Origin: Candidatus Oleincola secundus
GTDB taxonomy: Bacteria > Atribacterota > Phoenicimicrobiia > Phoenicimicrobiales > Stramentimicrobiaceae
DNA: 30,495 bases
Reading direction: 5' to 3'
Assembly (NCBI GenBank): GCA_018400815.1
Contig: JAGYLS010000014.1
Coordinates: 1-30,495, forward strand
Part shown: in pieces, positions 10,458 through 21,339 of the stretch
How positions within the stretch are numbered: position 1 is the stretch's first letter
How the letters are laid out: each line of letters starts with the position of its first letter
Notes under the pieces: model-generated
What the model saw: the letters and a program-made list of their open reading frames with translations, nothing else
Told to the model about the DNA's origin: nothing
Databases searched by the model: none
Made by a program: the position numbers and the translations under genes

Positions 10458-10463
10458 TTTTAT

Positions 10464-10706
10464 TTAACCATTACCACCTTTTTAGAAGGTGGTAATGGTT
10501 AAATAAATGGTTTTACCATAAAAAGATTAAGATAAGCTAGATGACAATTTTTCACCTGAAGTCCAAAGTTGGAAGTTATATTGCTTAAAAATATTATAGC
10601 TAAAGTATAAATAAAAAATCGAAAGAAAAGGAGCTAAAAGGTAGTAAAAAGTTAAACCTCTTTTAGGGATTCTCAAAGCCACCCGCTATGCGGGTGCGAT
10701 ATTTAC
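10464..10706 (+). mobile_element. Dispersed repeat copy A (long form); putative non-autonomous IS200/IS605-like element or structured RNA
   Basis: 5' perfect 22-bp inverted repeat (10459-10480/10486-10507), a body nearly identical to copies B and C, and a 3' hairpin cacccgc-tat-gcgggtg followed by cgatatttac. Confidence 0.75.
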
Positions 10707-10819
10707 TGTTTAGCGGCTGCAATGATAGCTGTTAATGTATTATATAACAAAAATGATTGTTCAGCTTATTAATTAGAGTATTTTGATTAATTAAATTGCA
10801 AAAAAACTTCTAACTTTGT

Positions 10820-10848
10820 TTGACATTTGAATTGTTAATAGGTAAAAT
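10820..10848 (+). promoter_or_regulatory. Sigma70-type promoter of the Tyr leader/ABC operon
   Basis: TTGACA-N17-TAAAAT. Confidence 0.8.
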
Positions 10849-10896
10849 ATTTTAAAATAATAGAAAATTAAGCATAATAATGAAAAGAGAATTAAA

Positions 10897-10947
10897 ATGA
10901 TACAACAAGTAAATAATTATTATTACTACTATTATATTCCGGGGTAA
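10897..10947 (+). CDS. Tyrosine-rich attenuator leader peptide (MIQQVNNYYYYYYIPG)
   Basis: 16-codon ORF with six consecutive Tyr codons (tat tat tac tac tat tat), lying between the promoter and terminator hairpins upstream of an amino-acid ABC transporter. Confidence 0.8.
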   Translation: MIQQVNNYYYYYYIPG

Positions 10948-10994
10948 GTGCCTATCGGGTTTGGTAGTAGTAAGTAAGAGATTAGTTCTGATAC

Positions 10995-11046
10995 AAATAA
11001 ACCACGGGCGTTTACCTCAGGTAAATTCCTGTGGTTTATTTTTTTT
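10995..11046 (+). terminator. Attenuator terminator 1
   Basis: aaataaaccacggg/cctgtggtttattt stem with an inner tttacct-c-aggtaaa palindrome, followed by a T-run. Confidence 0.8.
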
Positions 11047-11079
11047 AACCACGGGTGTGTAAAGCATTCGTGGTTTTTT
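11047..11079 (+). terminator. Attenuator terminator 2 (tandem, related to terminator 1)
   Basis: aaccacgggtgt-gtaaa-gcattcgtggtt followed by a T-run. It shares aaccacggg...gtggttt with terminator 1. Confidence 0.75.
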
Positions 11080-11166
11080 ATATAAAAATAGAGAGGGGAT
11101 GATAGATGATTCAAATTAATATACTGGAATTCAATAAAAAATACTCAAAAAAAGGGAGGAAATAAA

Positions 11167-12192
11167 ATGAGAACAAATTCAAATCGTTCAGTCGTTCTTA
11201 TGATTGTTAGTGTGATGTTAATAATTATTACTTTTATGATAATGAGTGCACCTGTTTTAGCTGAACAGCTAAAAATTGGAATTAGTCAAATTGTAGAGCA
11301 TCCGGCGTTAGATAACTGTCGAGATGGTTTTGTGGACGGAATGGAAAAAGCAGGATACAATACCGGTGAAGATGTTGTTTATGATTTTCAGAATGCCCAG
11401 GGAGAATTCAGTAATGCAATTTCGATTGCTCAAAAATTCAAGGATGATCAGGTTGATATTATTGTAGCAATTTCTACTCCAATTGCCCAGGCTGCAGCAC
11501 AGGTTACCAGTGAAATACCGATTATCATTGGGGCTATTACTGATCCCGTAGCAGCCAATATTGCTGAAAGCTGGGAAAGTTCCGGAAATAATATAACCGG
11601 CATGTCTGATGCAGCTCCAAACGAAGCACAGTTAAAATTAATACCAAGATTTTTCCCTCAAGCAACTAAAGTAGGTACAATTTATAATGCGGGTGAAGCC
11701 AACTCGGTGGTTCAAGTAGAACTTTCTCGAGAAATATGTCAAGACTTAGGATTAGAACTGGTTGAAGCAACAGTAAGCAATTCCAATGAGGTATTAATGG
11801 CTGCTCAATCCCTGGTCGGAAGAGTAGATGTATTTTATATAGTGACAGATAATGTTGCAGTATCTGCCTTTAGTTCTATTGTAAAAGTTTCATTAGAAGA
11901 AAACATACCAATCATTGTAGCTGATCCTACCTTTGTTACGGAGGGGGGATTAACTTCTTTTGGAATTGATTATTTTACTCTTGGACAGAAAAGTGCAGAA
12001 AAGGCAATACAGATTTTACAGGGAAAATTGCCTTCTGAAATACCTATTGGAAAATTAGATAAACCGGAAGAATTAAAATTTGTTATTAATATGGACATTG
12101 CGCAACAGCTAAATCTGGAAATACCTGCCGATCTATTAGGGGAAGCAGATTCTATTTTTCTAGGTGGGGTCAGCTGGGATCGAAGTGAATAA
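11167..12192 (+). CDS. ABC transporter substrate-binding protein (ABC_sub_bind; TrpX/CD0873-like aromatic amino-acid binding, probably tyrosine)
   Basis: KIGISQIVEHPALD, QNAQG, AITDPV, GNNITGMSD, YNAGEANSVVQ and TDN motifs; hydrophobic signal peptide; Tyr leader upstream. Confidence 0.9.
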   Translation: MRTNSNRSVVLMIVSVMLIIITFMIMSAPVLAEQLKIGISQIVEHPALDNCRDGFVDGMEKAGYNTGEDVVYDFQNAQGEFSNAISIAQKFKDDQVDIIVAISTPIAQAAAQVTSEIPIIIGAITDPVAANIAESWESSGNNITGMSDAAPNEAQLKLIPRFFPQATKVGTIYNAGEANSVVQVELSREICQDLGLELVEATVSNSNEVLMAAQSLVGRVDVFYIVTDNVAVSAFSSIVKVSLEENIPIIVADPTFVTEGGLTSFGIDYFTLGQKSAEKAIQILQGKLPSEIPIGKLDKPEELKFVINMDIAQQLNLEIPADLLGEADSIFLGGVSWDRSE

Positions 12193-12227: not shown

Positions 12228-13157
12228 ATGAGTTGGAGCTTAGTATTTCATGCAATAGAGCAGGGACTTGTTTTTGGAATTATGGCATTGGGAGTATATA
12301 TAACTTTTCAGGTATTGGATTTTCCGGATTTGTCCGTTGATGGCAGTTTCCCACTGGGTGCGGCTATTACTGCTAAAATAATTTTTTCGGGAGGACACCC
12401 GTTAGTAGCAATTTTCTGGGCAATTATTGGTGGTTTAATGGCAGGGGGATTAACAGCTTTTTTTCATACTAGGCTAAAATTTACCAATTTGCTGTCTGGC
12501 ATACTAACCATGACCTTGCTTTACTCGGTAAACCTGAGGATTATGGGAAAATCAAATATTCCATTATTGGGAAAAATTACAATACTCGATAATATAAAGA
12601 GTTTGTTTCCATCACTTACGATGGATCAGTTAACTCCTTTACTCTTTTTATTTATTGTTTTGCTTGTCAAAATATTGCTGGATTATTTTCTTTCTACTGA
12701 AATAGGTATGGCAATTCGAGCAACTGGAGATAACGAGCAGATGATTTTAAGTTTGGGTGTCGATACAAAAATAACTAAAATTATTGGCTTATGCCTTTCT
12801 AACGGATTAGTTGCTCTTTCGGGTTCTCTTTTTGCCCAGTATTCTGGATTTGCTGATGTAGGAATGGGAATCGGTACAATTGTTGCTGGTTTGGCTTCAG
12901 TAATTATCGGGCGCAGCATTATTAAGAATGGCAATATTGTCTGGATGACTACCAGTGTGATTATAGGTTCAATTATTTATCGTGCAACAGTCATGATTGC
13001 ACTGAGGTATGGTTATCACTTTGGTTTTCAACCGGGAGACTTGAAACTTATTTCAGTTGTTTTGGTAGTAATTGCTTTAACTTTTCCGCTAGTTCGGGGA
13101 AGGGTTAAAGCGATGGTAATGTCTAATGATTCGAGTTCAACAGAGAAAGAACAATAA
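12228..13157 (+). CDS. ABC transporter permease (BPD_transp_2)
   Basis: EQGLVFGIMALGVYITF, DLSVDGSFPLGAA, GMAIRATGDN and FADVGMGIGTIVAGLASVIIG; multiple TM segments. Confidence 0.92.
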   Translation: MSWSLVFHAIEQGLVFGIMALGVYITFQVLDFPDLSVDGSFPLGAAITAKIIFSGGHPLVAIFWAIIGGLMAGGLTAFFHTRLKFTNLLSGILTMTLLYSVNLRIMGKSNIPLLGKITILDNIKSLFPSLTMDQLTPLLFLFIVLLVKILLDYFLSTEIGMAIRATGDNEQMILSLGVDTKITKIIGLCLSNGLVALSGSLFAQYSGFADVGMGIGTIVAGLASVIIGRSIIKNGNIVWMTTSVIIGSIIYRATVMIALRYGYHFGFQPGDLKLISVVLVVIALTFPLVRGRVKAMVMSNDSSSTEKEQ

Positions 13158-13173
13158 GAGGAGGTAATTGACT

Positions 13174-13965
13174 ATGCTTCGTTTAAGATCTGTATATAAA
13201 TGTTTTGCAAGAGGTACTTCATATGAAGTCAATGCTTTAACAGGAATTAATTTAAAAATTGCGGAAGGTGATTTCATAACAGTCATTGGCAGTAATGGGG
13301 CTGGAAAGTCAACCCTCCTGAATATCATATCCGGAACGATGTTGCCAGATAAAGGAATGATAAGAATAGATAATCAGGATGTAACAAAAAAAGCTGAGCA
13401 TTGCCGAGCCAAATACATTGGTCGTGTTTTTCAGGACCCACTAATGGGAACTGCCCCTTCTATGACTATAGAAGAAAACCTGGTACTCTCTATAAAGCGT
13501 TATGGTAGAGGACTAAGGTTAGGATTGAACAATAAGAGAAGAGAATTTTTCCGAAACAAACTGGCAGAGTTAGAACTGGGGTTGGAGAATATGCTATCAA
13601 AGAAAGTAGCTTTGCTGTCCGGAGGGCAAAGACAGGCTTTAACGATTTTAATGGCAACAATGTTTGATCCAAAATTGCTTTTATTGGATGAACATACCGC
13701 ATCCCTTGATCCGGGTATTAGTAAAAAAATACAGGCAATTACCCAGGAAATTGTTAAAGAAAAAAAATTAACAACAATCATGGTAACTCATAATATGCAA
13801 GAAGCATTAAGACTAGGCAAACGAACTATTATGATGGACCGTGGTCGTATTATACTTGATATATCCGGCAAAGAAAGAGAAAATGTTACTATTGATTATT
13901 TATTAAAGCAATTTGCAAAATTAAGAAAAGAAGAATATATTGAAGATGAATTAGTATTAGCCTGA
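13174..13965 (+). CDS. ABC transporter ATP-binding protein
   Basis: Walker A GSNGAGKST, signature LSGGQRQ, Walker B LLLLDEHT. ATG 13174 (9 nt after GGAGG) is preferred to TTG 13168. Confidence 0.93.
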   Translation: MLRLRSVYKCFARGTSYEVNALTGINLKIAEGDFITVIGSNGAGKSTLLNIISGTMLPDKGMIRIDNQDVTKKAEHCRAKYIGRVFQDPLMGTAPSMTIEENLVLSIKRYGRGLRLGLNNKRREFFRNKLAELELGLENMLSKKVALLSGGQRQALTILMATMFDPKLLLLDEHTASLDPGISKKIQAITQEIVKEKKLTTIMVTHNMQEALRLGKRTIMMDRGRIILDISGKERENVTIDYLLKQFAKLRKEEYIEDELVLA

Positions 13966-14014
13966 TTGACTGCTGAGTAGATTATTTTGATTAAAGAAAA
14001 TAATACATATTACA

Positions 14015-14199
14015 GTAAATATCGCACCCGCATAGCGGGTGGCCTTAAGAACCTCTAAAAGAGGTTTAACTTTTTAGCTCTTTTTCTTTCAATTTTTTAT
14101 TTATACTTTAGCTATAATATTTTTAAGCAATATAACTTCCGACTTTGGACTTCAGGTGAAAAATTGTCATCTAGCTTATCTTAATCTTTTTATGGTTAA
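14015..14199 (-). mobile_element. Dispersed repeat copy B (short form, inverted)
   Basis: The reverse complement is nearly identical to the body and 3' hairpin of copy A (about 10513-10706). It lacks the 5' hairpin module. Confidence 0.75.
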
Positions 14200-14235
14200 A
14201 TAAAATCCCCAGATATTTTTGGGGATTTTTTATTT
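14198..14235 (+). terminator. Intrinsic terminator downstream of the ABC operon (possibly bidirectional)
   Basis: aaaatcccca-gatatttt-tggggattttttattt. Confidence 0.7.
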
Positions 14236-18601: not shown

Positions 18602-18720
18602 AAAGAATGAAAGACAAAAATAAAAATGTTAAAATAATATTTGCTTGTTATAATACTAGTTATAAAGAACTAAAAATTATAAATATTTTAAAAAAGCAAT
18701 TTAAGAGCATTTTTATTTAT

Positions 18721-18915
18721 TTAACCATAAAAAGATTGAGAGTAGCTAGATGACAGTTTTTCACTTGAAGTCCAAAGTTGGAAGTACGATTGCTTAGAAA
18801 TATTATAGCTAAAGTATAAATAAAAAATCGAAAGAAAAAGAGCCAAAAAGTGGTAAAAAGTTAAACCCCTTTTAGAGATTTCTTCAAGCCACCCGCTATG
18901 TGGGTACGATTTTTT
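18721..18915 (+). mobile_element. Dispersed repeat copy C (short form)
   Basis: Close match to copies A and B from ttaaccataaaaagatt to aagccacccgctatgtgggtacgat. Confidence 0.75.
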
Positions 18916-19377: not shown

Positions 19378-20097
19378 ATGTTAGCATTACAGGAAGTTTC
19401 TTATTTTGCGGCTTTTTTAGCTGGATTATTGTCATTTCTATCACCCTGTATCTTGCCTCTAGTACCAGGGTATATTTCATTTATTTCCGGGATATCTTTA
19501 GAGGATTTAAACAATAATAACAGTAAAAAAAGAAATAACTTTTATCGTGTTCTTACAGGGGCCTTATTTTTTATCTTCGGATTTTCTATCGTCTTTATTC
19601 TTTTGGGTGCTTCTGCAACTTTTCTTGGGCAGTTTTTACAGGAATATTCGGTTTGGTTTAAAAGAATAGGCGGTATAATCATTATCTTATTCGGGTTGCA
19701 TATGATAGGGATTATAAACATTCCTTTTTTAAATTTTCAAAAAAAGTTCCAAACCAGATCAGGTCTTTCTTTTAATTTATTTTTTACACCATTTTTAATC
19801 GGTTTTGCTTTTGCTTTTGGATGGACCCCCTGTATCGGACCTATTCTGGCTGCTATTTTAGTCTATGCGGGTACCCAGGATACGGTTATTAAAGGCATGT
19901 CCTTATTATCCCTCTATTCTTTGGGTTTGGGGATTCCTTTTTTATTAACGGCTTTAGCGGTAAATCAATTCTATCAATTAAGTGTGCAGATTAAAAAATA
20001 TTTCAAGATAATTGAATGGGTAGGGGGCTTGCTATTAATTCTGATAGGTATTTTTATTTTTAGTGATAATTTGACAATTCTGTCTTCTTATTTTTGA
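19378..20097 (+). CDS. ccdA: Cytochrome c biogenesis / thiol-disulfide transporter CcdA
   Basis: AGLLSFLSPCILPLVPGY, FAFGWTPCIGPIL and YSLGLGIPF; about six TM segments. Confidence 0.92.
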   Translation: MLALQEVSYFAAFLAGLLSFLSPCILPLVPGYISFISGISLEDLNNNNSKKRNNFYRVLTGALFFIFGFSIVFILLGASATFLGQFLQEYSVWFKRIGGIIIILFGLHMIGIINIPFLNFQKKFQTRSGLSFNLFFTPFLIGFAFAFGWTPCIGPILAAILVYAGTQDTVIKGMSLLSLYSLGLGIPFLLTALAVNQFYQLSVQIKKYFKIIEWVGGLLLILIGIFIFSDNLTILSSYF

Positions 20098-20098
20098 T

Positions 20099-20349
20099 TT
20101 AACCATAAAAAACCACTTTCTTTGAAAGTGGTAATGGGTAAATAAAATGGTTTTACCATAAAGATAAAGCTATACTAACTGAAATATGTTTAGCTCAAAT
20201 CATAAATAGATGCAAAATAGCATAAAAGAGCTCTTTTAAAAGATAGCTAAGAGATCAAGAGAAAAGAGCAGAGAAAAAACTATCTAAAAAAACTTAAGCC
20301 CACTTCAGAGGCTTTTTAAAGCCACCTGCTATGCGGGCGTGATATTCAC
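20099..20349 (+). mobile_element. Dispersed repeat copy D (long form, divergent body)
   Basis: 5' ttaaccataaaaaaccactttc-ttt-gaaagtggtaatgggtaaataaaatggttttaccataaag and 3' aagcc...ggctttttaaagccacctgctatgcgggcgtgatattcac. Confidence 0.7.
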
Positions 20350-20357
20350 TGAATGAT

Positions 20358-21044: not shown

Positions 21045-21092
21045 AATAAAAATGAGATAGTTATCAATACACTTGACTATCTCATTTTTATT
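21045..21092 (+). terminator. Intrinsic terminator after the thioredoxin gene
   Basis: aataaaaatgagatagtta / tgactatctcatttttatt inverted repeat. Confidence 0.7.
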
Positions 21093-21339
21093 TAACCATA
21101 AAAATCACCTTCTTTGAAGGTGGTAATGGTTAAATAAAAGGTTTTACCATAAAGACGATAAATGTGCTACCTAAAATATTTTACCTGAGGTCCCAAACAG
21201 AGACAATATTGCTTAGAAATAATTGGAAAACACCGTTTGGAAACTAGATAAGAGAAAAGAACAGGAAAATGGCTAAATTAAAGATAAGCCCCTTTCAGAG
21301 GCTTTTTAAAGCCACCCGCTTTGCGGGTGCGATATTTAT
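21092..21339 (+). mobile_element. Dispersed repeat copy E (long form, divergent body)
   Basis: 5' ttaaccataaaaatcaccttc-ttt-gaaggtggtaatggttaaataaaa and 3' aagcccctttcagaggctttttaaagccacccgctttgcgggtgcgatattta. Confidence 0.75.

Follow-up and report, generated by a model that had tools for sequence, protein, structure and literature searches.

The aromatic amino-acid importer operon of Candidatus Oleincola secundus (Atribacterota) is preceded by a conserved leader rich in Tyr codons which, judging from its sequence and that of its relatives, is very probably a ribosome-mediated transcription attenuator sensing charged tRNA-Tyr. The element lies in a stretch of 30,495 nucleotides, hereafter the window, to which all the coordinates refer, and appears to have every feature of the classical leader-peptide attenuators that can be tested in a sequence, although it matches no curated family. 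The trpL, pheL, pheST and hisL leaders of E. coli are likewise made of a short ORF containing the control codons, followed by a protector, an antiterminator and a U-tailed terminator, the his leader having a longer chain of alternative hairpins and one terminator. The leader reported here differs from these in the use of Tyr control codons, in having an importer as its target, in carrying two serial terminators with a predicted relay between them, in its occurrence in Atribacterota and in belonging to no Rfam family. The mechanism of classical leader-peptide attenuation is described elsewhere (PMC2659441; PMC9413887; PMC11802643). The original prediction for this site, an attenuator of transcription that acts through a leader peptide rich in Tyr codons and lies upstream of an ABC transporter, is supported by the conserved reading frame, the conserved helices and folding with an assumed ribosome footprint, and the transporter is an importer of the CD0873/TrpX family.

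The predicted sigma-70-type promoter, TTGACA and TAAAAT with a 17-nucleotide spacer, is found on the forward strand at 10820-10848, where it matches 11 of 12 consensus positions and is the best among 20 promoter-like sites between 9500 and 12500; the transcription start is inferred to lie near 10855. A TTGAC(A/T)-17-TANNNT site is present upstream of all 19 of the 19 leaders of one family of the phylum, f1. The leader ORF (10897-10947, forward strand) translates, as had been predicted, into the 16 codons of MIQQVNNYYYYYYIPG followed by a stop codon, with six Tyr codons at 10918-10935, and is thus a short ORF with a single-amino-acid codon run placed between promoter and first gene, as in known attenuators. 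Runs of at least six Tyr codons occur twice in the 2.0-Mb genome against 0.03 expected under an order-2 Markov model, and the other run has no ATG or GTG within its open frame. The leader ORF's Shine-Dalgarno sequence is weak in the window and in most importer leaders. The mini-ORF MKRELK with its stop codon (10880-10900), which overlaps the leader start, is attributed to chance, its ATG being missing in the 94%-identical homolog L002. Metatranscriptome contigs from three of four runs cover the leader; being contigs, they tell nothing of transcript ends, strand or abundance, just a small share of the words is contained in the runs, and no conclusion is drawn from them. Among 2151 short intergenic ORFs of this genome, no convincing leader for other amino acids was found beyond the importer leader and the aro leader described below; one candidate (C13:10255) adjoins a dispersed repeat and was set aside.

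Homologs of the importer were searched for in 61 genomes and found in 44. Within the class, known as JS1, 36 of 52 genomes encode one with at least 58% identity, and the upstream DNA was read in all 36. In 33 of them the same ABC importer has a Tyr-run ORF ahead of it, the remaining three being cut by contig ends, and one genome has two tandem importer copies, each with its own leader, which brings the leaders to 34. The alignment of the upstream regions of relatives, suggested as a check, thus shows that the Tyr run is kept and that the stems covary. An open frame that begins with an ATG or GTG in phase is present in 34/34 importer leaders versus 14/68 for the other two frames (two spurious reverse-strand rows were dropped from this count). 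Each leader has 4 to 11 Tyr codons, both TAT and TAC being used, and the totals are 237 Tyr versus 19 Phe codons; the description of the leader as purely Tyr holds for the window copy and for 22 of the 34, but not for the other 12, which contain one to four Phe codons. Both the N-terminus and the place of the stop codon differ freely from leader to leader, while in 34/34 leaders the last Tyr codon lies 15-22 nt ahead of the TGCC core of the antiterminator strand, a pattern expected of a translated sensor in which the peptide itself is immaterial.

Triplet-binding attenuation proteins such as TRAP exist, and the TAY repeat could in principle be an untranslated RNA-structural or protein-binding repeat resembling a TRAP-like triplet site, which would agree with the weak Shine-Dalgarno sequence and with the covarying pairing between the repeat and a downstream strand. 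This reading is nevertheless very improbable, because the in-frame start and the open frame are universal among the 34 leaders, the number of repeats shifts by whole codons, substitutions yield in-frame Phe, His, Cys or Asn codons, many aro leaders carry a strong AAGGAG motif upstream of a GTG start, and the share of Phe codons is higher before genes of the Phe/Tyr pathway. Translation of the repeat, as a sensor of tRNA-Tyr charging, is the preferred reading in what follows.

The helices were scored on 32 of the 34 importer leaders, which could be aligned; the two missed by the extraction pattern, L007 and L026, reached 146 and 107 bits when the covariance model was applied to them later. The predicted 1:2 hairpin of the Tyr codons was borne out: in the minimum-energy fold these codons are paired with 10962-10973, and RNAalifold recovers the same helix across the 32 homologs. 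In full, this protector hairpin P1 spans 10923-10973 on the forward strand (10923-34 with 10962-73, and 10938-41 with 10956-59) and encloses the antiterminator 5' strand; its outer helix is 85.9% paired, with one pair changed from C-G to U-A in 14/32 sequences. When the Tyr codons were blocked, a constraint that had been proposed at the outset, a second helix emerged from folding, the antiterminator 10941-53:11006-18, whose conserved 5' strand overlaps the leader stop codon and whose 3' strand overlaps the 5' arm of terminator 1 (both on the forward strand). It has 13 pairs, is 97.6% paired in the 32 leaders and has three pairs changed on both sides. The antiterminator named in the original prediction, between 10955-10963 and the foot of the terminator, can form in the window, nested in a larger helix, but had to be given up, as it is not conserved (62.9% of cells paired in the 32 homologs, with 478/500 shuffles as high).

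A U-tailed terminator had also been predicted, and one is indeed present; the sequence, however, holds two. Terminator 1 (10997-11046, forward strand) is a hairpin of 10997-11008 with 11028-39, extended inside and followed by a U tract; it is 96.6% paired and four of ten pairs are changed on both sides. Terminator 2 (11047-11079, forward strand) is again a hairpin with a U tract. A simple terminator scan returned terminator 2 only, terminator 1 coming from folding. Antiterminator and U-tailed terminator are mutually exclusive and conserved with covariation, as is the rule in attenuators. In addition, the alignment predicts a relay helix (11028-11055, forward strand) between the 3' arm of terminator 1 (11028-36) and the 5' arm of terminator 2 (11047-55), with 276/288 cells paired (96%) and three pairs changed on both sides in the 32 leaders. 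The ON state, consisting of antiterminator plus relay, is 96.9% paired, a level reached by 0/500 shuffles, counts that overstate the case and are not probabilities since the leaders compared are related and one of them had served to find the helices; controls with slid strands gave 32-50%, and the OFF state of the importer leaders is 88.1% paired.

The relay helix is rather likely to be functional, to judge from these alignments. Position 11052 is paired in 32/32 sequences in the relay versus 21/32 inside terminator 2 as aligned, and G11054 and G11055 form G-C pairs in the relay and mostly G-U pairs in terminator 2, observations that favour selection on the relay itself. The competing view, held here to be somewhat unlikely, accepts the attenuator but takes terminator 2 as a mere duplicate or stabilising hairpin, the relay pairing being a by-product of the likeness of the two 5' arms. 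Near-identical arms would alone permit cross-pairing, terminator 1 has a change in 5/32 sequences that is not matched in terminator 2, a G-G mismatch occurs in the relay of 5/32 sequences, and the relay is rarely favoured at full-length equilibrium. Yet the operon would be shut off by a second U-tailed hairpin that could not be bypassed, both arms change together across families and across aro and importer leaders (in the aro leaders the relay is 99.1% paired), terminator 2 has wobbles or a mismatch where the relay has Watson-Crick pairs, and in family f2, where terminator 2 is longer-stemmed and further off, the relay strand is still kept.

In the scheme that follows from a functional relay, when tyrosine is plentiful the ribosome would reach the stop codon, or P1 would re-form, so that 10941-53 would be covered and terminator 1 would form; any polymerase that leaked through would then meet terminator 2, the 5' arm of which would be free. 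When tyrosine is short, a stall on the Tyr codons would open P1, and 10941-53 could then bind 11006-18 while terminator 1 was still incomplete. The 3' arm of that terminator, left without its partner, would pair with the 5' arm of terminator 2, one stall thus cancelling both terminators, and the importer would be made only when needed.

Folding with an assumed ribosome footprint reproduces the geometry of this scheme, in which a stall frees the antiterminator and a ribosome at the stop codon covers it, under the requirement of kinetic control. With the ribosome three codons before the last Tyr, the antiterminator probability exceeds 0.5 in 32/32 leaders, and when the ribosome sits at the stop codon it does so in 2/32. 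Once the 5' arm of terminator 2 has been transcribed, antiterminator and relay each win in 26/32 leaders; the window is one of the six in which terminator 1 still wins at that stage. Here, with the RNA made up to the end of terminator 1, the ON state is the less stable one by 6.6 kcal/mol, and where the relay is possible the two states are about equal (-40.2 vs -40.6 kcal/mol). At full-length equilibrium terminator 1 is favoured despite the stalled ribosome in 23/32 leaders, so that the switch must be kinetic, the antiterminator having to form first. If no ribosome is present, the antiterminator prevails in 17/32 leaders; P1 is therefore no reliable default-off structure in the model.

The regulated operon encodes, all on the forward strand, an ABC substrate-binding protein (11167-12192; PF04392) assigned by homology to the CD0873/VC1101/SP1069 family, an ABC permease (12228-13157; domain match to PF02653) and an ABC ATPase (13168-13965; annotated by homology). 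The binding protein matches 6HNI with an E value of 4e-69, its solved relatives being 6HNI, 3LKV and 3LFT, which bind Tyr, Phe and Trp, respectively, according to the structural report (PMC6816091). It does not reach the cut-off of the TrpX equivalog NF041285 (280.4 bits against 390). Residues D253 and Y269 align with E263 and Y279 of CD0873, with Asp in place of Glu; according to that report, the acidic residue at the E263 position contacts the Tyr hydroxyl and a Tyr at the Y279 position excludes Trp (PMC6816091). The pocket residues fit tyrosine, a fit that falls short of proof, and tyrosine is probably the main cargo of the importer.

It had also been claimed that the leader reveals the substrate of the importer. 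In favour of this claim, the pocket residues match those of CD0873; against it, homologs controlled by a Trp T-box carry the same two residues. Aromatic sensing could then be broad and the importer a general Tyr/Phe/Trp transporter, its Tyr run not naming the substrate, which is the picture suggested by the seven homologs of the phylum that have the same D/Y pocket under a UGG (Trp) T-box, by the D or E plus Y found at the pocket sites of most of 50 homologs from outside the phylum, by the Phe codons of the 12 importer leaders mentioned above and by the mostly Phe leader of the paralog L210. This broader role is nonetheless judged unlikely in view of the excess of Tyr codons in the importer leaders when compared with the 114 Tyr versus 84 Phe codons of the 26 scored aro leaders, and of the reported roles of the acid at the E263 position and the Tyr at the Y279 position. 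At L210 (G016:C326) and at L013/L044 (G018:C119) the importer binding protein is duplicated and every copy has a leader to itself, and the mostly Phe leader of L210 suggests a retuning of paralogs. In four genomes (G004, G008, G015 and G017, 96-99% complete) the Tyr leader and the importer are kept, and the searches returned nothing for chorismate mutase and nothing strong for prephenate dehydrogenase; going by gene content, these organisms may be dependent on uptake.

Between the terminators and the importer start, 33/34 leaders have a further Shine-Dalgarno-like motif that is not followed by any consistent reading frame (11090-11099, forward strand, in the window), located 70-126 nt upstream of the importer start (shuffled mean 7.5, maximum 16) and often close to the full anti-SD complement. 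mRNA-stabilising Shine-Dalgarno sites of the STAB-SD kind exist, and the motif may be such a site or a ribosome standby site. A 19-codon ORF at 11106-11165 (forward strand), which ends one base upstream of the importer start, is not conserved in the homologs and was discarded.

The importer leader is not the only one of its kind. In the same genome a second leader (L083, G000:C113:6070-6281, forward strand), with mixed Phe and Tyr codons, lies upstream of an aro-tyrA operon encoding chorismate mutase (PF07736), prephenate dehydrogenase (PF02153) and, presumably, two DAHP synthases and further shikimate enzymes. Importer and aro leaders are homologous (cross-hit E 8.8e-6) and have the same layout, the aro leaders being 98.6% paired in the ON state and 99.0% in the OFF state. 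The element is directly upstream in 28/30 chorismate mutase loci; one further locus is cut by a contig end, and at L213 (G027:C6) the aro leader is separated from the gene by an inserted transposase-like ORF of 350 aa. Since the aro leaders combine Phe with Tyr codons and the importer leaders are Tyr-rich, the choice of codons goes with what the regulated genes do. Aro-type leaders are also seen in rearranged operons, namely L212 (Phe-rich) before a DAHP synthase-like gene and L211 before a shikimate dehydrogenase-like gene.

Leaders with Phe and Tyr codons also precede an M20 amidohydrolase (TIGR01891, above the cut-off) in 7/9 genomes with that gene; in the remaining two, a contig break parts one gene from any leader it may have, and the other is leaderless. 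The query used gave no match for this gene in the genome of the window. The 500-aa proteins encoded at L202-L207 and L209 have, by eye, a hydrophobic signal-peptide-like N-terminus; the amidohydrolase is probably exported and may act on peptides or conjugates to liberate aromatic amino acids.

The covariance model has matches in 40 of 86 genomes of the phylum, namely the genome of the window itself, 21/21 others of family f1, 18/30 of f2 and 0/34 in other families. At 50 importer-homolog loci outside the phylum the model has no match, and a comparable Tyr-run leader was not found there, L161 having a three-Tyr ORF; no sense-strand T-box above the cut-off was detected in the 20 of these loci that were scanned. 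Rfam gives no match at the gathering score in the window, T-box (RF00230) included, and at an E value of 0.01 the leaders of L002, L020 and L026 return nothing except one sub-threshold microRNA match. T-boxes are otherwise frequent in this genome, with 16 matches at 14 places, before genes such as leuS, ileS and pheS, and none of them shows by eye a UAC specifier. The importer homologs of the phylum's other families have a T-box in 7/7 cases, scoring above the Rfam cut-off, with the specifier UGG (Trp) in four alignments and, by eye, in the rest. These seven homologs share D253 and Y269 with the binding protein of the window, which weakens the case for either the pocket residues or the leader naming the substrate. 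A protein tree made with a quick method, after the removal of two duplicates and one short sequence, places the class in one clade and leaves its link to the T-box-controlled homologs unresolved, so that these are not called orthologs here.

Directly upstream of tyrS, no Rfam match was found in the 15 loci scanned out of 24 and no leader-profile match in all 24, at which tyrS sits behind another gene; no tyrS was detected in the genome of the window, which is 86% complete. A distant homolog of the binding protein with 25% identity (L046, G047:C44) has a leader that resembles, by eye, a cyclic-dinucleotide riboswitch. A dispersed repeat of about 250 nt, present in the window at 10460-10710, 14012-14200, 18720-18914, 20097-20351 and 21088-21338, begins with a 20-bp perfect hairpin, gives 153 BLAST pieces in the genome and is possibly a non-autonomous mobile element or a REP-like repeat.

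Some known systems come close to individual traits of this leader. The aroR-aroF attenuator of Corynebacterium glutamicum (Neshat et al., 2014) has a Phe-Tyr-Phe leader that reportedly responds to Phe and not to Tyr (PMC11802643; PMC4046766). It resembles the aro homologs in having Phe and Tyr codons ahead of a DAHP synthase, but contains just Phe-Tyr-Phe, whereas the importer leader of the window has six Tyr codons and no Phe; by analogy, a Tyr codon with no Tyr response would count against the Tyr-sensing reading. A table in a Shewanella survey lists, from a 1980 E. coli paper, an aroF attenuator sensing Tyr-tRNA (PMC2659441); Tyr-tRNA-dependent attenuation has thus been predicted in print, although for a gammaproteobacterial biosynthetic gene and, in that table, with neither leader sequence nor test. 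The T-box-controlled trpXYZ of Streptococcus suis (PMC9382623) and CD0873 of C. difficile, described as tyrosine-binding (PMC6816091), belong to the same PF04392 transporter family; trpXYZ follows the same logic of induction by uncharged tRNA, through a T-box that is absent here. As for serial control, the tandem attenuator of Salmonella mgtCBR has two control points and two ORFs (PMC3641672), while here one ORF would serve both, and the tandem terminators of the rimP leader are likewise two control points, with no leader peptide or relay in the account given by that source (PMC2965389). Swaps from T-box to leader peptide have been described (PMC2965389; PMC9413887). In the full-text literature, a scope that leaves aside older comparative surveys and supplements, no tested Tyr-only leader attenuator, no Atribacterota element of such type and no leader-controlled two-terminator relay were found.

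Taken as a whole, the leaders are, by a modest preference, read as a lineage-wide family of aromatic sensors in one Atribacterota class, in which a single Tyr stall would cancel two terminators through a helix domino and so give a tighter off state, the module having been duplicated and retuned by its codons (Tyr for the importer, Phe plus Tyr for aro-tyrA and the amidohydrolase) and filling the Tyr gap among the T-boxes. If this is true, tyrosine by itself would join the amino acids that leader peptides read, and the leader-peptide mechanism would be shown in a phylum for which metagenomes are the main source of knowledge. Two terminators coupled in this manner would be a simple way to tighten attenuation and a possible part for a tyrosine biosensor, and leaders of this kind may give functional hints for unannotated genes such as that of the M20 amidohydrolase. 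With the same transporter family placed under a T-box or under a leader peptide within one phylum, the swap between the two modes of tRNA sensing would become traceable.
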